Of a DNA stretch of 64,000 nucleotides, positions 37,756-52,852 are shown one piece after another (within the stretch, counting starts at the first letter, position 1; the number at the start of each line of letters is the position of its first letter). The position numbers and the translations under genes are program-made. The notes below the pieces were generated by a model. That model searched no databases. It was not told the origin of the DNA and saw nothing but the letters and a program-made list of their open reading frames with translations. The stretch is from contig JAGFZV010000008.1 in assembly GCA_017889545.1 (NCBI GenBank), positions 70,874 through 134,873 of the forward strand, given 5' to 3'. The stretch comes from Bacillota bacterium. GTDB taxonomy: Bacteria > Bacillota > Negativicutes > CTSoil-072.

Positions 37756-37906
37756 TTGACGATTTTATGCGAATACGGTATAATATAACACATAAGCACA
37801 TACACAACAGGTATGGAACTGGCGGATCAGTGGAAATAACCACATGAACCATATCTGAAAAAGCCGACCGCCTGGGCATAATTTTATGACCCAGGCGGTC
37901 TTTTTA
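37756..37906 (+). ncRNA. Candidate small RNA or attenuator: sigma-A promoter + 115-nt transcript + intrinsic terminator upstream of pflB
   Basis: TTGACG (37756-37761), 17-nt spacer, TATAAT (37779-37784); terminator gaccgcctgggcataattttatgacccaggcggtc + TTTTT (37866-37905); no ORF with SD in between. Confidence 0.4.
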
Positions 37907-37992: not shown

Positions 37993-40221
37993 ATGAGAGA
38001 ATGGAAAAATTTTAGAGGCGGAGTTTGGGAGACAACAATTCAGGTGAGTGATTTTATTCAGCAGAATTATACCCCGTACACAGGTGACGATCAATTTTTA
38101 ACCGGCATCAGCCCCAAAACGCAAACTCTCTGGGAACGCTGCACAGAATTACTGAGCAATGAACGTAAAAAAGGCGGCGTTTTGGCAGTTGATTTCAAGA
38201 CGGTATCGTCTATTACGGCTCATCAGCCGGGCTATATTGATAAAGAACTGGAAGAAATTGTAGGATTGCAGACGGATCAACCATTAAAGCGCAGTGTTAT
38301 TGTAAACGGCGGCATCCGGATGGCGGAGCAGGCTTGCCAGGCATATGGTTATGAACTTGATCCAACAATTAGCGCTATCTATCATAACCATCGAACGACG
38401 CATAATACAGCCGTATTTCATGCTTATACGGAAGAGATGAAGCAAGCCCGACGTTTGGGCATTATTACAGGTCTCCCGGACGCCTATGGGCGTGGCCGTA
38501 TTATTGGAGACTATCGCCGGGTTGCACTATATGGAACAGACCGGCTGATTGTCGGAAAGCAAAATGATTTAAAAGCCTTGGCGAATAAACCGATGAGTGA
38601 AGAAGTCGTCAAGCTGCGCGAAGAAGTAGCGGCTCAAATTTCGGCGTTGGAGGATATGACCAAAATGGCGGCATCCTATGGATGTGCGATTGATCAGCCT
38701 GCTGCCGATGCACAGCAAGCGGTACAATGGGTCTACTTCGGTTATTTGGCAGCGATAAAAGAGCAAAACGGTGCGGCGATGTCCTTGGGCAGGGTCTCGA
38801 CCTTCCTGGATATTTATTTGGAACGTGATTTAGCTGCCGGAAAAATTTCCGAAGAACAAGCACAGGCATTAATCGACCAACTGATCATTAAGTTGCGGCT
38901 GGCACGGCATTTAAGGACTCCTGAATACAACGAATTATATGCCGGCGACCCTTTGTGGGTCACGGAAGCAATTGGCGGGATGGGCTTGGACGGGCGTACC
39001 TTAGTGACTCGCACCTCATACCGTATCCTGCAAACCTTGTACAATTTAGGCCCTGCTCCGGAGCCGAACCTGACGGTGCTATGGTCTGTGAATTTGCCGG
39101 AACAATTCAAGCAATACTGTGCGCAAGTTTCCATCAAGACCAGTGCAATTCAATATGAAAATGACGATATTATGCGTCCGGTCTATGGAGATGATTACGC
39201 AATTGCCTGTTGCGTATCGGCCATGAAAGTCGGCAAACAGATGCAGTTTTTTGGCGCCCGGGCCAATCTTGCAAAAGCGTTGTTATTGGCAATCAACGGC
39301 GGGATCGATGAAAAAAGCGGCGAACAGCTTGGTCCCAAGATGCCGCTTCCACCAGATGGAGCACTGAACTATGAACAAGTACGCGCCAATTATTCTACGG
39401 TTATAGACTGGCTGGCGGGTTTGTATGTGAATACATTGAATTTAATTCATTTCATGCATGACAAATATGCGTACGAAAGAGCCCAAATGGCGCTCCACGA
39501 TACCGAAGTCGAACGGTTAATGGCGTTTGGGGCGGCCGGATTGTCTGTAGCCGCCGATTCTCTCAGCGCGATACGTCATGCAAAAGTGAAACCCGTTCGC
39601 GACGAGCGAGGAATTGCCGTCGATTTTGCCGTAGAAGGCCAATTTCCCTGTTACGGTAACAATGATGAGCGGGTAGACGCGCTGGCCGCTGAGCTAAGCG
39701 CCGAGTTTTCCGACAAACTAAAGCAACATGCAACTTACCGCCAGGCTCGTCACACGCTGTCAATATTGACAATCACCTCGAATGTGATGTATGGCAAAAA
39801 GACCGGCGCAACCCCAGACGGTCGGGCAGCCGGTGAAGCATTTGCCCCAGGCGCCAATCCCATGCATGGGCGCGATAAGAATGGCGCATTGGCAGCGATT
39901 GCCTCCATTACCAATTTATCTTATGATGATTGCCGTGATGGGATTTCCTACACTTTTTCCATTGTGCCCGGTGCATTGGGGAAATCAAATATTGCCCGCG
40001 TTGGCAATTTGACAGCGATGCTGGATGGGTATGCAATACAGGCGGGTCACCATATCAATGTGAATGTTCTTGATCGGGCTGTGCTGAAAGATGCCATGGC
40101 TCATCCGGAAAAATACCCGCAATTGACTATTCGTGTTTCCGGCTATGCAGTTCATTTTACAAAACTGACGCCAACACAACAGGCGGAAGTGCTCAACCGG
40201 ACCTTTTATCAGGCGGTGTAA
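37993..40221 (+). CDS. pflB: Formate C-acetyltransferase (pyruvate formate-lyase, glycyl radical enzyme)
   Basis: 742 aa; C-terminal glycyl-radical motif RVSGYAVHF; adjacent activating enzyme. Confidence 0.9.
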
Positions 40222-40953: not shown

Positions 40954-41072
40954 AGAGTAACAAGAAATGGTCTTGCCGGCAAAATTGGGCGATTTCAAAG
41001 CAAAAACTACACGCCAGAGACGATATCTGTTATAATAGCTATACGTGAATTTTTCTTGAAGGTGGCGTGGAT

Positions 41073-42182
41073 ATGAGTACAAGTCTCGAAGTAGGGATTG
41101 TCGGTCTTCCGAATGTCGGTAAAAGCACACTATTTAATGCAATAACCAAGGCTGGAGCAGAAGCGGCCAATTATCCTTTTTGTACAATTGAACCCAATGT
41201 AGGCGTAGTGGAAGTTCCCGATGAACGCCTGGCTCGTTTGGCTGAAATATACAAGTCTAAAAAAATTATCCCAGCAACAATGCGGTTTGTGGATATTGCC
41301 GGGTTGGTAAAAGGCGCTTCCTGTGGAGAAGGCTTGGGCAATAAATTTTTATCCCATATTCGCGAAGTCGATGCTGTAGCACAGGTCGTTCGTTGCTTTT
41401 CAGACGAAAACGTAACTCATGTAGAAGGATCACTTGATCCGTTACGGGACATTGAGATTATCAATACGGAGCTATGCTTGGCAGATCTGGATACGTTGCA
41501 GAAACGGTTCGACCGCTTAAAAAAGATGCTGAAAGGCGGCGACAAGAAGGCGATCGAAGCGGAACTCGATCTTTTGGAAAGAATTAAAGTTTTGCTCGAA
41601 CAGGCGTTGCCGGCACGGCGTGTCGAGATGACGCCGGAAGAAGCGGTATTGATCCGCGACCTTAATCTGCTAACCCTCAAGCCGGCGTTATTTATTGCTA
41701 ATGTCAGCGAAGAAGAAGCGGCAGATTCTTCAGCAAATCCCCATGTTCAGGCAATCCGGGAGTATGCCGCCCAAGAGGGAGCGGAAGTGATTGTGGTCTC
41801 GGCAAAAGTAGAATCAGAGATTGCAGAGCTGACAGAAGAAGAAGCAAAAGAATTTTTACAGGAAATGGGCCTGGAAGAGTCCGGCTTGGATAAATTAATC
41901 AGGTCGAGTTTTAAACTATTAGGGTTGATGACTTTTTTGACAGCCGGGGAACAGGAAGTACGTGCATGGACAATTCGCCGGGAAACGAAGGCGCCGCAAG
42001 CAGCCGGCAAAATTCACAGCGATATTGAGCGTGGTTTTATCAGGGCTGAAATTGTTTCTTTCGCCGACTTGACTGCGTGCGGGAGCTTGAATGCAGCACG
42101 CGAAAAAGGCTTAGTCCGTCTGGAAGGCAAAGAATACATCATGCAGGATGGCGATGTGACTAATTTCCGCTTTAATGTCTAA
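41073..42182 (+). CDS. ychF: Redox-regulated ATPase YchF (Obg-family GTPase)
   Basis: [22 protein letters not shown]; C-terminal TGS domain; ATG 41073 with SD AAGGTGG. Confidence 0.9.
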
Positions 42183-42224
42183 CTCGAAAAAGTTACAATA
42201 GATCAATAATTTGGTGAAAAACAA

Positions 42225-42254
42225 TTGACAAGTGTATACTTGCGAGACTATAAT
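42225..42254 (+). promoter_or_regulatory. Sigma-A promoter of the aroF-pheA leader
   Basis: TTGACA (42225-42230), 18-nt spacer, TATAAT (42249-42254). Confidence 0.6.
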
Positions 42255-42289
42255 TACATCATCATCAGGTAAGGTTAGGTGTTCACGAT

Positions 42290-42448
42290 ATGAATAACAT
42301 CAAACAAGTTTGCCAACTGAATACAGTTTCTGTGTTTAACTTTTTTAGCCAAGGCTGGTTTTTTAGCGTTGGTTATTTTGCGTTTACATGGAAAACTGAA
42401 TATGGCGCAAATTTTTTGAAGTTCCTCCGTGTGGATCCTTTAACATGA
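42290..42448 (+). CDS. Putative aromatic-rich leader peptide (52 aa) of the aroF-pheA operon
   Basis: ATG 42290 preceded by SD AGGTG; MNNIKQVCQLNTVSVFNFFSQGWFFSVGYFAFTWKTEYGANFLKFLRVDPLT: 9 Phe, 2 Trp, 2 Tyr; stop TGA 42446-42448; terminator follows. Confidence 0.45.
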   Translation: MNNIKQVCQLNTVSVFNFFSQGWFFSVGYFAFTWKTEYGANFLKFLRVDPLT

Positions 42449-42477
42449 TCATTACGTAATATGAATGACATACAAGG

Positions 42478-42516
42478 CGAGGTTCTTTGGAAAAAGAACT
42501 TCGTCTTTTCTTTTGG
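42478..42516 (+). terminator. Attenuator-type intrinsic terminator in the aroF leader
   Basis: cgaggttcttt / ggaa / aaagaacttcg stem followed by TCTTTTCTTTTGG; 30 nt downstream of the leader ORF stop. Confidence 0.6.
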
Positions 42517-42608
42517 TCTTATAGAAAGTATAAATACTTTCTATGACATAAGCGCAACCAGCGGCGTATGCCGTCGCTAAAAGCTCGGCACAAGCCGGGT
42601 TTTCTAAT
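42517..42608 (+). repeat. Intergenic repeat copy B (modules M1+M3) immediately upstream of aroF
   Basis: Palindrome atagaaagtataaatactttctat (42521-42544) + acataagcgcaaccagcggcgtatgccgtcgctaaaagctcggcacaagccgggttttctaat (42546-42608), near-identical to 45687-45751. Confidence 0.7.
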
Positions 42609-42637
42609 ATCGAAAAAAATTTTAAAGGAGGATTATT

Positions 42638-43639
42638 ATGTTAGTCGTTATGAAACCCGGCGCGCCGCAAAGCGAGGTAGACAAAATGTATACGAGGTTG
42701 ATGCAAACGGGAACGGAAGTTTCGGTCATTGAAGGAACGCAGCAGAGTGTGTTCGCGTTGGTAGGAGATACGAGCAAAATAGAGGTCGGCACTTACGCTG
42801 CAAACCAGCATGTCGAAAAAATTATGCGTGTACAGCAACCGTATAAGATGGCCAGCCGGATTTTTCAGCCCCAAGATACGGTTGTTGAAATCGGCAGCTG
42901 CAAAGTTGGCGGTGGTCACAAGGCTGTGATTGCCGGGCCCTGCTCTGTTGAAAGCATTGAGCAAATGGTTCAGACCGCGATCCTGGTGAAGCAATACGGA
43001 GCAACGATGCTGCGTGGAGGCGCATACAAGCCCCGGTCATCTCCCTATAGTTTTCAGGGAACAGGAGAAGAAGGGTTGCAAATGTTGGTGAAGGCCAGAG
43101 AAGCCACCGGCCTGCCGTTTGTTACGGAAGTGATGAGCGTGGAAACGTTTGACCTAATTGAAGATTGTGCTGACCTCATACAAATTGGAACCAGAAATAT
43201 GCAAAATTTCCCACTATTAAAGCGAGCGGGCAAAAGCTCAAAGCCGATCCTTTTAAAACGCGGGATGAGTGCAACGTTGGAAGAATTTTTGATGGCGGCG
43301 GAATATATTATCGCCGGCGGAAATCGGCAAGTTATTTTGTGCGAACGCGGTATCCGGACGTTTGATAATTATACGCGCAACACGTTGGATCTTAGTGTTA
43401 TCCCGGCGATCAAAGAAGTGAGCCATCTGCCGATTATTGTTGATCCAAGCCATGCATGCGGCAAATGGTCAATGGTTGAACCGCTTGCCAAAGCGGCTAT
43501 GGCGGTTGGAGCCGATGGACTGATTATTGAAGTTCACCATCAGCCGGAAAAAGCGCTTTGTGACGGAGCGCAATCTCTCAAGCCAGAGAAATTCGGAAAA
43601 TTGATGACTTCCGTACAGCGAATTATGGAAGCGGTATAA
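42638..43639 (+). CDS. aroF: 3-deoxy-7-phosphoheptulonate (DAHP) synthase, type I-beta with N-terminal regulatory domain
   Basis: 333 aa; N-terminal ferredoxin-like regulatory domain, then KDO8P/DAHP synthase TIM barrel (...[11 protein letters not shown]..., ...IVDPSHA...). Confidence 0.85.
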
Positions 43640-43677
43640 GTTAAAAGAAACGCACAGGCATGAGATTGGGGATATTT

Positions 43678-44559
43678 ATGAAAATAGGATATTTAGGACC
43701 TGTTGGAACTTACAGTTATGAAGCTGCTTGCTTATATGCCGAGAGCCTGGATGGAAAATTTGATTGCGTTGCATTGCCGAACTTTCTTGCCATTATCGAC
43801 GGCGTCGAAAAAAAAACGATTGATAGAGGGATTATTCCAGTGGAGAACTCGACGCATGGAGCGGTTGCAACTGCAATGGATACATTGCTTCATGTTCGCA
43901 AAAGTAAAGTTTGCGGTGAAATAACATTAAAAATTGAACATTGTTTGTTGGGGCGTGCGAAAAAGATGGAAGAGATCCGATGTGTTTATTCGCACGAACA
44001 AGCATTGGAGCAATGCAGTCAATTTTTTTACAAAACGAATCCTCACATGGAAATCATTTATTGTGCCAGTACTTCGCAAGCCTGTGCACTGGCATTGAAA
44101 AATGGCAGTGCATATGGCGCAGTAGCCAGTAAATCAGCAGCCCAGCGTTACAATCTTACTATATTAGCGCAAAAAATCCAGGACAATCCCTTCAATCAGA
44201 CTCGCTTTTTAATCATCGGCGATGCATCTCCGGGAATTACGGGTTTCGATAAAACGTCGATTATTTTGGCTTTCTCCGATGACCGTCCCGGAAGCCTATA
44301 CGGTGTTCTCCGCTCTTTTGCTAGCAGAGGGATTAATCTGACACGGATCGAATCCCGGCCGGCAAAACATAATGTTGGCCAGTACATCTTTTATATCGAC
44401 TTTCAGGGACATCAGCACGAAGATAAGGGACATGACGTACTAATTGAGTTGGAAACACAAGTCAGCTGTCTGAAGGTGCTAGGGTCCTATCCAATGGACA
44501 ATTGGCAAAAGCAAAAAACAGGAAGTGCGAATGATCGCTTGGAGAAATCCTCATTTTGA
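43678..44559 (+). CDS. pheA: Prephenate dehydratase (PDT + ACT domains)
   Basis: PDT domain with TRF and ESRP motifs, C-terminal ACT; ATG 43678 (track start 43660 is extension). Confidence 0.85.
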   Translation: MKIGYLGPVGTYSYEAACLYAESLDGKFDCVALPNFLAIIDGVEKKTIDRGIIPVENSTHGAVATAMDTLLHVRKSKVCGEITLKIEHCLLGRAKKMEEIRCVYSHEQALEQCSQFFYKTNPHMEIIYCASTSQACALALKNGSAYGAVASKSAAQRYNLTILAQKIQDNPFNQTRFLIIGDASPGITGFDKTSIILAFSDDRPGSLYGVLRSFASRGINLTRIESRPAKHNVGQYIFYIDFQGHQHEDKGHDVLIELETQVSCLKVLGSYPMDNWQKQKTGSANDRLEKSSF

Positions 44560-44598
44560 GATATAATTGGGTTATTCTGTAGTCGAATGAGGAAAACA

Positions 44599-45483
44599 AT
44601 GATAAAAGACAACAAGAGCCTGGTATATTTTGTGATGATTTTTGTGACGTTTATCTGGGGTGTGAATATGCCGATTATGAAAATCGGATTGCTTTATCTT
44701 CCGCCCATGCCGTATAATGCTGCCAGAATGCTGTGCGCTTTGGTTGCAACACTACTGTTTACAGTCATTACGAAAAGTTATCGGCCGCTTGACCGGAAGG
44801 ATATCAAAACAATTTTATTGGTCAGTATTGGCGGTTTTTTTGTCTTTCAGTTATTTCTTACCGCCGGCGTCCAAAAAACGACTGCTGGGAATGGTTCATT
44901 AATCATGGCCTTGCTGCCTGTTAGTGTGGCGATAATCAATAAGATTTGCAAAATTGAAGAGATTTCGCGGTTTGCAATGGCTGGAATTATTTGTTCTTTA
45001 CTGGGTATTGTTTTAATTGTGGCGGGATCCAGCAAAGAAATCAGCTTTGCTGATGAACATATCTATGGCGCGCTTCTCCTTTTGGGGGCACAGGCAAGTT
45101 ACGGATATTATACGGTTTTTTCAAAGGATTTGTTACAGAAATATTCTACTTATCAGATCACAATGTACATTGTTTTGATTTCGACGGCATTGTTTTGTCT
45201 GACGGCCTGGCCCAGCATTGCTGCAACAAGTTGGCGAGAAGTCCCATTGGCAGCTTGGGGCAGCATTCTTTATTCCGGTGTGTTTGCTCTATGCATCTGT
45301 AATTTTTTGTGGATTTGGAGCGTGGGGAAGGCAGGAAGCATAAAAGCTTCCATCTATAATAATCTTTCGCCGATATTTGCGATTATTGGCGGTTATTTGT
45401 TATTAGGCGAAACGTTTAGCTTACTCCAGTTTTTTGGCGCAGCAATTATTTTCTTAGGAATATATCTAGCCCGAAAAAAGTAA
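44599..45483 (+). CDS. EamA/DMT family transporter
   Basis: About 10 TM helices, two EamA-like repeats. Confidence 0.8.
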   Translation: MIKDNKSLVYFVMIFVTFIWGVNMPIMKIGLLYLPPMPYNAARMLCALVATLLFTVITKSYRPLDRKDIKTILLVSIGGFFVFQLFLTAGVQKTTAGNGSLIMALLPVSVAIINKICKIEEISRFAMAGIICSLLGIVLIVAGSSKEISFADEHIYGALLLLGAQASYGYYTVFSKDLLQKYSTYQITMYIVLISTALFCLTAWPSIAATSWREVPLAAWGSILYSGVFALCICNFLWIWSVGKAGSIKASIYNNLSPIFAIIGGYLLLGETFSLLQFFGAAIIFLGIYLARKK

Positions 45484-45490
45484 AACAAAA

Positions 45491-45540
45491 GCAAAACCGC
45501 GAGAGCATATCAATAGGATGCTCTCGCGGTTTTGCTTTTG
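45491..45540. terminator. Bidirectional intrinsic terminator after eamA
   Basis: aaaaccgcgagagcat / loop / atgctctcgcggtttt followed by GCTTTTG. Confidence 0.8.
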
Positions 45541-45544
45541 TTTA

Positions 45545-45751
45545 GTACACCAGAAAGTATAAATTTTCCTCTACGCACAGACTGTAAGATCCCTTACGAA
45601 GGGATCAACAGTCTGTAACTCGAAATAAGTGCGACTAAACTTCAGATGGCGGTAACCATCTGAAGCAAGCCTTCTATATCTGGTGTACATAAGTGCAACC
45701 AGCGGCTTCCGCCATCGCTATAAAAGCTCGGCGCAAGCCGGGTTTTCTAAT
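45545..45751 (+). repeat. Composite intergenic repeat copy C (10-bp inverted ends, M1, 40-nt palindrome, M2 hairpin, M3 with terminator-like hairpin)
   Basis: GTACACCAGA (45545-45554) and TCTGGTGTAC (45679-45688); palindrome acagactgtaagatcccttacgaagggatcaacagtctgt (45577-45616); M2 hairpin cttcagatgg/cggtaa/ccatctgaag (45640-45665); M3 45687-45751. Confidence 0.7.
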
Positions 45752-52523: not shown

Positions 52524-52852
52524 AGGGGAATCCCTTCAAGCCCTTCCGTCTCAGTCACTTCGGATCCAAGCGGATAAAAAATTTCCAGATTACCATATGA
52601 TCAGATATGGCGTACCGTACATTGTGCAGCTCGCATGGATGCCGCCAAAATACACCAATATCAGCCTAAAAGTAACATGGGTAAAGTATTTTGTCAATAC
52701 AATCGCGAAAGATCAGAAAAAAATTTGCATTTTCTTTTCTGATGGTGCTATAATAATTAAGTCTAGGACAACATTATAGGTTTCAAATTTCGGTTTGTGA
52801 ACCTTCCCTGCCCCGCTTGAGGGGCCATTAGTCCAGAGGAGGAGGTGATTTC

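Follow-up and report, generated by a model that had tools for sequence, protein, structure and literature searches.

A putative ribosome-mediated transcription attenuator in the leader of the aroF-pheA operon of a Negativicutes bacterium

The leader of the aroF gene in a 64,000-nucleotide stretch of Negativicutes DNA (contig JAGFZV010000008.1; hereafter the window) most probably functions as a ribosome-mediated (leader-peptide) transcription attenuator of aroF-pheA(-eamA), as judged from sequence comparison. A promoter, a Shine-Dalgarno (SD) sequence, an aromatic-rich ORF and an intrinsic terminator (T1) follow one another in the order and with the spacing right for an attenuator, and the 1:2 structure with a regulatory-codon region expected of leader-peptide attenuators is present. 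Conservation and covariation of the promoter, ORF, T1 and 1:2 helix are observed in related genomes. A preliminary description of the window had likened the region to the pheL and trpL attenuators, and this reading is supported by the conserved ORF and T1, by the enrichment of aromatic-rich ORFs upstream of aroF and by a codon make-up which tracks the branch gene. Such an attenuator would represent a testable control mechanism for the step at which aromatic amino-acid synthesis begins, in a Negativicutes lineage that has been little studied.

Promoter, leader ORF and terminator

The leader elements and the genes aroF, pheA and eamA are located on the forward strand. The aroF gene (42638-43639), preceded by the SD GGAGG (42627-42631), codes for a type I-beta DAHP synthase with an N-terminal ferredoxin-like domain (PF18152, PF00793). 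It is followed by pheA (43660-44559), coding for a prephenate dehydratase with an ACT domain, and eamA (44587-45483), coding for an EamA-family transporter. The three genes form a putative operon, their order is the same in the related locus L081, and the domain matches bear out the DAHP synthase and prephenate dehydratase assignments made previously. Upstream, a sigma-70-type promoter (TTGACA-18 nt-TATAAT; 42225-42254), earlier considered near-consensus, matches the consensus at 12/12 positions and is predicted to start transcription at about 42261. Its spacer carries the inverted repeat CAAGTgtatACTTG (42229-42242). The window and the related loci L081, L082 and L001 agree in every base of the two hexamers and of the 12-nt spacer stretch GTGTATACTTGC. 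No further copies of the promoter or of the spacer palindrome occur within the window, and no terminator was found between the upstream gene ychF and the promoter.

The leader ORF (42290-42448; MNNIKQVCQLNTVSVFNFFSQGWFFSVGYFAFTWKTEYGANFLKFLRVDPLT) comprises 52 codons plus a stop codon and is preceded by the SD AGGTG (42277-42281), 8 nt 5' of its ATG. Its translation is identical to the 52-residue peptide given in the preliminary description, whose count of nine Phe, two Trp and two Tyr residues behind an SD was exact. Seven of the Phe residues fall within residues 16-32, and codons 16-34 (42335-42391) form a regulatory codon cluster of seven Phe (all TTT), two Trp and one Tyr codons, which is proposed as the ribosome stalling zone. 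Aromatic residues account for 13 of the 52 residues (25%), compared to 7.5% in the long ORFs of the window, and the leader ORF ranks first in aromatic density among the 503 window ORFs of 30-80 amino acids. When the 455-nt intergenic region was shuffled 5000 times with dinucleotides preserved, 12 shuffles reached a density equal to the nine aromatic residues in 17 of this ORF. This single-sequence result is suggestive, not decisive, of a non-chance ORF, and the comparative evidence decides. At 52 codons, the ORF exceeds the typical length of leader peptides.

T1 (42474-42516), the intrinsic terminator which would act as the attenuator, is composed of a 15-bp stem with a GGAA loop, then UUCUUUUGG. 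The stem spans 42474-42507 and TTCTTTTGG follows to 42516. Folding of T1 yields -19.4 kcal/mol, with a z of -4.7 relative to shuffles. While a stem-loop with a U-run had correctly been noted at this location, the stem begins at 42474 rather than 42478, and 25 nt rather than 30 nt after the stop codon. The corresponding distance is 18-46 nt in 27 other aroF leaders.

Conservation of the leader and similar leaders at other aroF loci

Orthologues of the leader peptide are 96% identical in P0001, L081 and L082, 100% identical in L121 and 81% identical in L001. L081, L082, L121 and L001 all retain the reading frame with its start codon and SD, with AAGGAG found at the SD position in L001. Comparison of the aroF leaders of relatives, the check put forward in the preliminary description, was positive, in that L081, L082 and L001 have all kept T1 as well as the frame and its run of aromatic codons, the T1 of the last showing GU-to-GC changes. 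Order-specific peptide similarity beyond composition is also evident in the Clostridia-type leaders L002 (z 4.4) and L003 (z 3.7). In L002, Phe, Tyr and Trp are interchanged with the reading frame retained, and the motif G-aromatic-aromatic-aromatic-x-[A/V/T]-G-aromatic-F is common to the Firmicutes leaders. In L002, L003, L033 and L073, the leader ORF has a good SD.

Among the 80 aroF loci fetched, which include no Acholeplasma locus, a short upstream ORF with at least seven aromatic residues in 12 is present at 22 of 79 species-level loci, against 0.5 expected from shuffles and none on the reverse strand. Nearly all of the aromatic ORFs listed upstream of aroF are followed by a hairpin and T-run. 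Loci with such leaders span the Firmicutes, Spirochaetes, Desulfobacterota and Chloroflexi, suggesting that leader-peptide attenuation of aroF is widespread, at roughly one quarter to one third of the 79 loci. The Phe, Tyr and Trp content of the leaders tracks the gene after aroF in the sequences compared, with the Phe-rich leader of this window before pheA, Tyr-rich leaders before tyrA (L002, L003, L033, L010, L008 and L074) and a Trp-rich leader before trpE (L013).

The preliminary description had cautioned that Phe codons are T-rich and that an open frame in AT-rich DNA could arise by chance, in which case T1 would merely terminate ychF transcription. The 64.6% A+T content of the region, the 12 shuffles of equal aromatic density and the lack of a terminator from ychF to the promoter would all be compatible with this explanation. 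A perfect and conserved promoter, however, separates ychF from the ORF, which is kept in frame on four other contigs and is recognisable in L002 and L003, and the family-wide count exceeds that expected by chance. A chance frame is thus effectively refuted by the comparative data and retains next to no probability.

The ORF could instead code for a functional small hydrophobic (membrane) protein co-transcribed with aroF, with T1 as an ordinary partial terminator. Its 52 residues include an aromatic and hydrophobic core of approximately 22 residues, the gene is called in public assemblies (P0001 and P0002) and some leader peptides have known second functions, an example being peTrpL (bioRxiv 10.1101/606483). 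A search of 5.8 billion protein clusters, however, returned just two matches, without a wider protein family or annotation, and the leader ORFs of other taxa have nothing in common with it beyond their position and high aromatic content. The leader ORFs of the window and L001 differ at 15 nucleotides, distributed 5/5/5 over the codon positions, with none in codons 16-32, in which no nucleotide has changed across four genomes. Twelve of the 15 differences, which lie outside this frozen core, alter the amino acid and there is no third-position excess, unlike in aroF, where 151 of 315 third codon positions (48%) differ between the window and L001. Several of the amino-acid changes furthermore represent the two halves of compensatory RNA pairs. 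This substitution pattern appears to mark a regulatory leader and not a protein, making the small-protein explanation very unlikely. Short ORFs of this type would be better annotated as leader peptides than as hypothetical proteins.

RNA structure and the proposed course of attenuation

The leader ORF is enclosed by a long-range helix, the 1:2 structure (42274-42444), in which a 5' strand containing the SD and start codon (42274-42343) pairs with a 3' strand in the 3' half of the ORF (42376-42444). In an RNAalifold alignment, five of its pairs are changed on both sides in L001 (columns 16-182, 25-172, 26-171, 41-158 and 69-133), and several GU-to-GC changes also occur in this relative. The fold of the whole leader has a z of -6.1. 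In the folding models, the helix is proposed to sequester, on a leader free of ribosomes, the SD as well as the candidate antiterminator strand. An apical hairpin within the ORF (42346-42375; UAGCCAA-G-GCUGG / UUUU / UUAGC-G-UUGGUUA) carries aromatic codons in and beside its loop, with a U-rich stretch to its 3' side. Over six different aroF leaders from Firmicutes, this hairpin has 93.8% of its cells paired, versus 25-48% with the partners slid, and compensatory changes occur at three pairs, giving a covariation score matched by 1 of 500 shuffles. This hairpin may serve as a pause or synchronising hairpin. A further, spacer hairpin between the stop codon and T1 (42445-42471) is kept in four relatives, with one-sided changes only. 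The large covarying hairpin around the ORF had been overlooked in the preliminary description.

The strong structure of the leader, its nucleotide-level constraint with compensatory changes and the ability of the apical hairpin to account for the conserved Gly, Ser and Ala positions of the peptide would also be in keeping with direct signal sensing by a structured RNA, acting as a riboswitch or as a protein or tRNA site, with the frame a by-product of U-rich constrained sequence and without involvement of ribosomes. No Rfam family matches, however. An Rfam 15 cmscan of 42150-42680 at E <= 10 yielded no more than spurious sRNA matches, with neither a T-box (RF00230) nor a leader family, confirming the absence of a T-box consensus reported earlier, and no matches were obtained in a scan of 20 other aroF-leader loci at gathering scores. 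The frame, start codon and SD are also retained in distant relatives with diverged nucleotides, the enrichment of aromatic ORFs is strand- and frame-specific, and the aromatic-to-aromatic swaps and the content which tracks pheA, tyrA and trpE are codon-level features for which a ligand-binding RNA would have no need. Direct sensing by the RNA is accordingly considered very unlikely.

Sensing could alternatively be performed by the nascent aromatic peptide, which would respond to a free amino acid in the exit tunnel, as in TnaC, rather than to a shortage of charged tRNA, with read-out via T1 or Rho. The glycine-containing aromatic motif kept across the Firmicutes leaders and the unusual ORF length could be explained in this way. 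The conserved non-aromatic positions fall on the stems of the covarying RNA hairpin, however, an intrinsic terminator is present at classical spacing, and the free interchange of aromatic residues follows the pathway branch, as predicted by hungry-codon sensing. The probability of a TnaC-like peptide is therefore rated as slight.

For the preferred reading, ribosome-mediated attenuation, we infer that the leader ORF is translated and that ribosomes stall on it. Transcription would begin at about 42261, and a ribosome would load on the nascent leader and translate the 52-codon ORF as RNA polymerase proceeds to T1. With Phe-tRNA, and to a lesser extent Trp- and Tyr-tRNA, well charged, the ribosome would pass codons 16-34 and the 3' half of the ORF and reach the stop codon, where the RNA able to pair with the 5' arm of T1 would be covered, or be recaptured by the 1:2 helix. 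T1 (42474-42516) would then form and transcription would stop before aroF. Where charged Phe-tRNA is scarce, the ribosome would stall within the aromatic cluster, located where the 1:2 helix has its apex, and keep the helix open, and the freed 3' strand (42414-42440) could pair with the emerging 5' arm of T1, such that T1 would not form and aroF-pheA would be transcribed. When no translation occurs, the 1:2 helix would close, the SD and start codon would be hidden and T1 would form, representing a default-off state.

The candidate antiterminator strand, region 2 (42414-42440), offers two pairings with the T1 5' arm. In the first, UUUUGAAG (42414-42421) and CCUC (42424-42427) would pair with GAGG (42479-42482) and CUUUGGAA (42485-42492), while in the second GGAUCCUU (42433-42440) would pair with AAGG/UUC of the 5' arm. 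In masked folding, the antiterminator pairing requires the ribosome mask to end at or before approximately 42415, and a ribosome placed at F42, F45 or the stop codon abolishes it. The Phe codons F42 and F45 fall within the presumed antiterminator strand. The best antiterminator duplex has an energy of -13.0 kcal/mol (z -0.93), equalled by 18% of shuffles, that of L001 has an energy of -8.9 kcal/mol (z +0.24) and the fold of the antiterminator conformer, with a z of +0.8, is no better than shuffles. The pairing shows no covariation in this clade because region 2 and T1 are nearly invariant. The antiterminator suggested by these models is therefore indistinguishable from chance in this clade. 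Clear antiterminators of 9-10 bp (z -3 to -4.5) are found in the analogous leaders of Treponema, L067, L074 and L051, in a scan across leaders with terminators limited to the region 3' of the ORF.

A different pairing, between GAAGTTC (42418-42424) and the 3' arm of T1, had been proposed in the preliminary description. The segment is indeed complementary to GAACTTC (42496-42502), but this geometry is less likely as it would need to outcompete the adjacent 5' arm. The same segment can alternatively pair with the T1 5' arm and loop, and neither pairing is supported statistically or phylogenetically in this clade.

Known attenuators and the inserted repeat

The E. coli pheL-pheA and trpL leaders share the layout observed here, with a promoter, an SD and product-codon-rich ORF, a 1:2 structure and a terminator before the first gene. 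In pheL as well as here, codons for small residues are scattered among the Phe codons and supply G and C for pairing. There is, however, no sequence or covariance-model similarity to the E. coli leaders (Rfam Phe_leader and Trp_leader; E <= 10). The pheL leader comprises approximately 15 codons and trpL 14, whereas the window leader is longer (52 codons), mixes Phe, Trp and Tyr codons and would control DAHP synthase together with pheA. Its 1:2 helix is also very long and sequesters its own SD, and the antiterminator is ill-defined.

A direct functional precedent for an aromatic leader peptide before a DAHP synthase operon is provided by aroR, located upstream of aroF in Corynebacterium glutamicum. 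This leader was predicted previously (PMC4046766), and stalling at its Phe-Tyr-Phe leader peptide under Phe limitation raises transcription (Neshat et al. 2014, as summarised in PMC11802643). The likeness is one of description, aroR being found in an actinobacterial host with a single F-Y-F triplet, as opposed to the 19-codon aromatic cluster and conserved apical hairpin found here. Within the Firmicutes, leader-peptide attenuators have been predicted for His leaders (PMC9413887) and for hisS/hisZ in Bacilli (PMC2965389), as well as for ilv-leu in Staphylococcus aureus, with a Leu-rich attenuator peptide (PMC5794164). These are cases of classical attenuation replacing T-boxes, but for other amino acids or operons and with unrelated sequences. 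The preliminary description had set the layout apart from the T-box or TRAP control usual in Firmicutes, but leader-peptide attenuation has been predicted in the Firmicutes (PMC9413887, PMC2965389) and described for aroF (PMC8632094, PMC11802643, PMC4046766). As the mechanism is already documented for aroF elsewhere, the window leader would represent a further case rather than a new principle.

The uORFC-13-1 motif is confined to positions before aroF and was reported solely from Acholeplasma and from environmental sequences without assignment, with 24 representatives (Brewer et al. 2021, PMC8632094). It combines promoter-like boxes, an RBS, a start codon, a U-run with "at least one" Phe codon, a paired substructure and an adjacent intrinsic terminator, for which its authors proposed ribosome-mediated attenuation (PMC8632094). 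The window leader, compared by description alone, shows all of these features, and uORFC-13-1 and the Firmicutes-type aroF leader could belong to the same family. A broader and tentative reading, given slightly less than an even chance as a whole, is that the aroF leaders of Negativicutes, Clostridia, possibly Spirochaetes and perhaps uORFC-13-1 constitute a single attenuator RNA family of old origin, most of which has escaped annotation. The family would be defined by a covarying hairpin presenting aromatic codons in its loop, its Phe, Tyr and Trp codons would have been re-tuned as pheA, tyrA and trpE were swapped behind aroF, and in this lineage a mobile terminator-bearing repeat would have invaded, adding a second termination checkpoint before aroF. 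The leaders could help in building a model of the RNA family, and they illustrate how attenuators are re-specified in nature by codon substitution.

The repeat in question is a copy of a dispersed element of approximately 95 nt, inserted between T1 and aroF (42518-42612). In order, it contains a hairpin H1, single-stranded CAUAAGCGCAACC, a hairpin H2 and a terminator-like hairpin T2 (42580-42603), followed by UUUUCU, and it folds with -36 kcal/mol (z -5.4). The repeat and its T2 hairpin had been overlooked in the earlier reading. It is missing in the closest relatives, L081 and L082, and present in L001. Further copies are found at 45546-45751 in the window and at 1216-1311 in L001, and a metagenome scan for the repeat yielded 49 stretches, with copies sitting upstream of genes without functional relation. 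Its absence in L081 and L082 and the copies at unrelated places argue against an integral second attenuator or riboswitch of aroF, and the repeat is not part of the core attenuator. With the T2 hairpin placed 3' of T1 and 5' of aroF, expression may require more than read-through of T1. A second aromatic ORF (TTG 42487, MEKELRLFFWSYRKYKYFL) scored highly in the ORF scan and was rejected, its start codon being gone and its frame broken by 2-nt and 4-nt deletions in L001. Its Phe and Tyr codons arise because the T1 U-run and the H1 hairpin supply them.

The aroF leader and its conservation in relatives

The 455-nt intergenic region between ychF (41067-42182) and aroF (42638-43639) very probably contains a leader-peptide attenuator, a reading that is real and well supported. 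The aroF product is a DAHP synthase carrying a ferredoxin-like domain at its N-terminus; behind aroF lie pheA (43660-44559), whose product, a prephenate dehydratase, contains an ACT domain, and the gene of an EamA-family transporter (eamA; 44587-45483). All the parts named in the preliminary description are present: a perfect sigma-70 promoter (TTGACA-18-TATAAT; 42225-42254), a 52-codon leader ORF (42290-42448) preceded by a Shine-Dalgarno (SD) sequence (AGGTG, 8 nt 5' of the ATG), and a hairpin with a U-tract before aroF. The translation and composition given there were reproduced, with nine Phe, two Trp and two Tyr, and seven of the Phe in residues 16-32. The hairpin, an intrinsic terminator (T1; 42474-42516) of 15 bp followed by a U-tract (-19.4 kcal/mol, z -4.7), had been placed slightly too far downstream, as its stem begins at 42474, 25 nt past the stop codon. 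The T-box, already stated to be absent, was not found in an Rfam scan of the leader, which returned no family match even at E <= 10. Phe is mostly encoded by TTT in the long ORFs of this genome (435 TTT vs 141 TTC), so the leader codon cluster does not depend on rare codons.

It had been cautioned that such an ORF could arise by chance. When the intergenic region is shuffled with dinucleotides preserved, 12 of 5000 shuffles reach as many aromatic residues (nine in 17), and the leader ORF ranks first in aromatic density among the window's 503 ORFs of 30-80 aa. This single-sequence evidence against chance is moderate, while the comparative evidence is decisive. A scan for AroF, covering one genome per species, returned a single close relative, an uncultured Negativicutes MAG (L001; AroF 87% identity), which shares the promoter and T1 and whose 52-codon ORF is 81% identical. 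A search with the leader peptide among 5.8 billion proteins returned two clusters only, whose contigs, L081 (182 kb) and L082, show the same arrangement with a 96% identical peptide; the peptide of metagenome locus L121 is identical. The proposed comparison with related genomes thus bore the frame out, with aromatic codons conserved in close relatives, and in Firmicutes further removed, the peptides of the upstream ORFs at the aroF loci L002 (AroF 65%) and L003 (57%) resemble the window peptide in residue order more closely than composition explains (z 4.4 and 3.7, respectively). L002 differs by Phe/Tyr/Trp interchanges in an intact frame. Relative to L001, the window aroF differs at 151 of 315 third codon positions, the leader ORF at only 15 of 159 nucleotides; the latter changes are spread 5/5/5 over the codon positions and leave codons 16-32 untouched, which indicates constraint on the nucleotide sequence rather than on a protein.

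Several further features were observed in this region. The promoter spacer holds an inverted repeat, CAAGTgtatACTTG (42229-42242), of which no second copy was found within the window, and 12 nt of the spacer, GTGTATACTTGC, do not differ among four relatives; the inverted repeat could be an operator for a DNA-binding regulator, on top of attenuation. The leader ORF contains two UUUUUUA motifs, at 42338-42346 (AAC-UUU-UUU-AGC) and 42356-42367 (UGG-UUU-UUU-AGC), and incidental frameshifting has been reported for E. coli pheL (PMC3082878). A second short aromatic-rich frame with a TTG start, MEKELRLFFWSYRKYKYFL (42487-42546), overlaps the T1 loop, 3' arm and U-run as well as the first hairpin of the adjoining repeat; it was rejected as a chance product of U-runs, the frame being broken and lacking a start codon in L001.

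Aromatic leaders upstream of aroF in other taxa

Short upstream ORFs with at least seven aromatic residues in 12 occur in 22 of 79 aroF loci, with 0.5 expected from shuffles and none when the complementary strand is read. They are found in Blautia and other Clostridia, Treponema, Desulfobacterota and Chloroflexi, and in nearly all listed loci a hairpin and T-run, 18-46 nt from the stop codon, lie between the ORF and aroF. Examples include L010 (2699-2840), L008 (2836-2907), L074 (2792-2878), L073, L051 and L013. An Rfam scan of 20 aroF-leader loci from other genomes gave no family match.

The amino acid make-up of the leader tracks the gene after aroF. The window leader, with pheA behind aroF, is dominated by Phe, while tyrA (prephenate dehydrogenase) follows aroF in L002, L003, L033, L010, L008 and L074, where the leaders are Tyr-rich (e.g. 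YAYYYYWY and AYYYFNYRGYFF). In L013 the Trp-rich leader FWRLWW precedes aroF and trpE (anthranilate synthase), and the Desulfobacterota peptides are Trp-rich (e.g. WFWWWRW). This match is as predicted for regulatory codons; were the leader a ligand-binding RNA, or the ORF a functional small protein, such tuning to the downstream gene would not be predicted. The aroF leaders might, tentatively, constitute one old, unannotated RNA family, re-tuned by codon substitution and, in the window, also invaded by a mobile terminator repeat.

Attenuators of this kind are already known, and the window leader adds a member. Two precedents exist for aroF. The aroR leader peptide (Phe-Tyr-Phe) of C. glutamicum, predicted earlier (PMC4046766), precedes aroF, and Phe limitation raises read-through (PMC11802643). 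The uORFC-13-1 motif (Brewer et al. 2021), a uORF with a U-run coding for Phe and a terminator next to it, was described from Acholeplasma and environmental DNA, always upstream of aroF (PMC8632094). In Firmicutes, his and hisS are likewise predicted to be under leader-peptide attenuation (PMC9413887, PMC2965389). A literature search of incomplete coverage found no description of the aroF leaders of Negativicutes, Clostridia, Treponema or Desulfobacterota, or of Phe/Tyr/Trp tuning.

Leader folding and antitermination

RNAalifold on four close relatives predicts a long helix in which 42274-42343, with the SD and start codon, pairs with 42376-42444 in the 3' half of the ORF. In L001, both sides are changed in five pairs of this helix (e.g. 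S14A with K35T, and a silent I4 change with L43F), with several further GU/GC changes. Its tip (42346-42375) forms a small hairpin with aromatic codons in a U-rich loop, which can also be drawn in the aroF loci L002, L003, L004, L024 and L035. In a gap-free codon-aligned alignment this apical hairpin is 93.8% paired, vs 25-48% with slid partners, and has three compensatory pairs, the structure being derived from the same sequences. The apparent Gly/Ser/Ala conservation of the leader peptides is due to this RNA hairpin.

The classical four-region scheme would fit, with the long-helix strands as regions 1 and 2, the regulatory codons at the apex and the T1 arms as regions 3 and 4; the mechanism would be that of E. 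coli pheL and trpL. In the model without a ribosome, region 2 and the SD are held within the 1:2 helix and T1 is predicted to form. When the footprint of a ribosome stalled anywhere from F16 to Y38 is masked, UUUUGAAG/CCUC (42414-42427) pairs with GAGG/CUUUGGAA (42479-42492) in the 5' arm and loop of T1, and this pairing disappears once the ribosome has reached F42, F45 or the stop codon. The proposal that GAAGTTC could act as antiterminator by pairing with the T1 3' arm holds as to complementarity, which is genuine, but less well as to geometry, since the same segment would pair more favourably with the 5' arm. The candidate duplex (-13.0 kcal/mol) is equalled by 18% of shuffles (z -0.93) and scores worse in L001, and in folding the antiterminator conformer does not surpass shuffles. 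Region 2 and T1 show no covariation because both are too conserved. Given the weak duplex, shuffle-level fold and lack of covariation, we only infer antitermination in the window's clade. Analogous leaders (Treponema, L067, L074 and L051) have a clear antiterminator of 9-10 bp (z -3 to -4.5).

A dispersed repeat before aroF and other RNA motifs

An element missed in the preliminary description, a structured repeat of ~95 nt (42518-42612; -36 kcal/mol, z -5.4), lies between T1 and the aroF SD. It comprises a T-rich 5' flank, hairpin H1, the single-stranded stretch CAUAAGCGCAACC, hairpin H2 and a terminator-like, GNRA-looped hairpin followed by UUUUCU (T2). Copies share the H1 loop AAGTATAAAT, single-stranded CATAAGYGCAACC, a small H2 and the terminator-like hairpin AAAGCTCGGCGCAAGCCGGGTTTTCTAAT, their H1 stems covary, and no Rfam match was found; some have only the terminator module in common, joined to another upstream module. 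Further copies occur in the window (45546-45751), in L001 (1216-1311 and 2843-2938), one of which precedes ychF, a position that lacks a copy in the window, and in metagenome loci (L083-L131), an exact-match scan of metagenome contigs giving 49 stretches, of which a single sample accounts for more than 25, on different contigs. The copies often lie 13-110 nt upstream of same-strand genes, or between convergent genes, and the downstream genes are functionally unrelated. The repeat was rejected as a core part of the attenuator, since it recurs elsewhere, precedes unrelated genes and is absent from the aroF leaders of the closest relatives, L081 and L082. Its recurrence, variable presence in relatives and unrelated neighbours point to a dispersed, terminator-bearing element that is probably mobile, an idea ('mobile terminators') raised previously (PMC2965389). 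In the window, aroF may thereby be preceded by a second point of termination.

The second window copy begins directly after a long perfect bidirectional terminator-like hairpin (AAAACAAAAGCAAAACCGCGAGAGCAT...ATGCTCTCGCGGTTTTGCTTTTGTTT; 45484-45545) behind eamA, and carries in its H1 loop an extra insertion of ~125 nt with two more hairpins (about 45570-45665); this long variant recurs in L115, L123 and L130. Elsewhere in the window, a ZMP/ZTP riboswitch (pfl motif; 37805-37884, forward strand; 61.4 bits vs a gathering score of 39) immediately precedes pflB (formate acetyltransferase; 37993-40221), an association already known, and a match to the Rfam 'pan' motif occurs at 52542-52648 on the reverse strand (44.6 bits vs a gathering score of 36.2).
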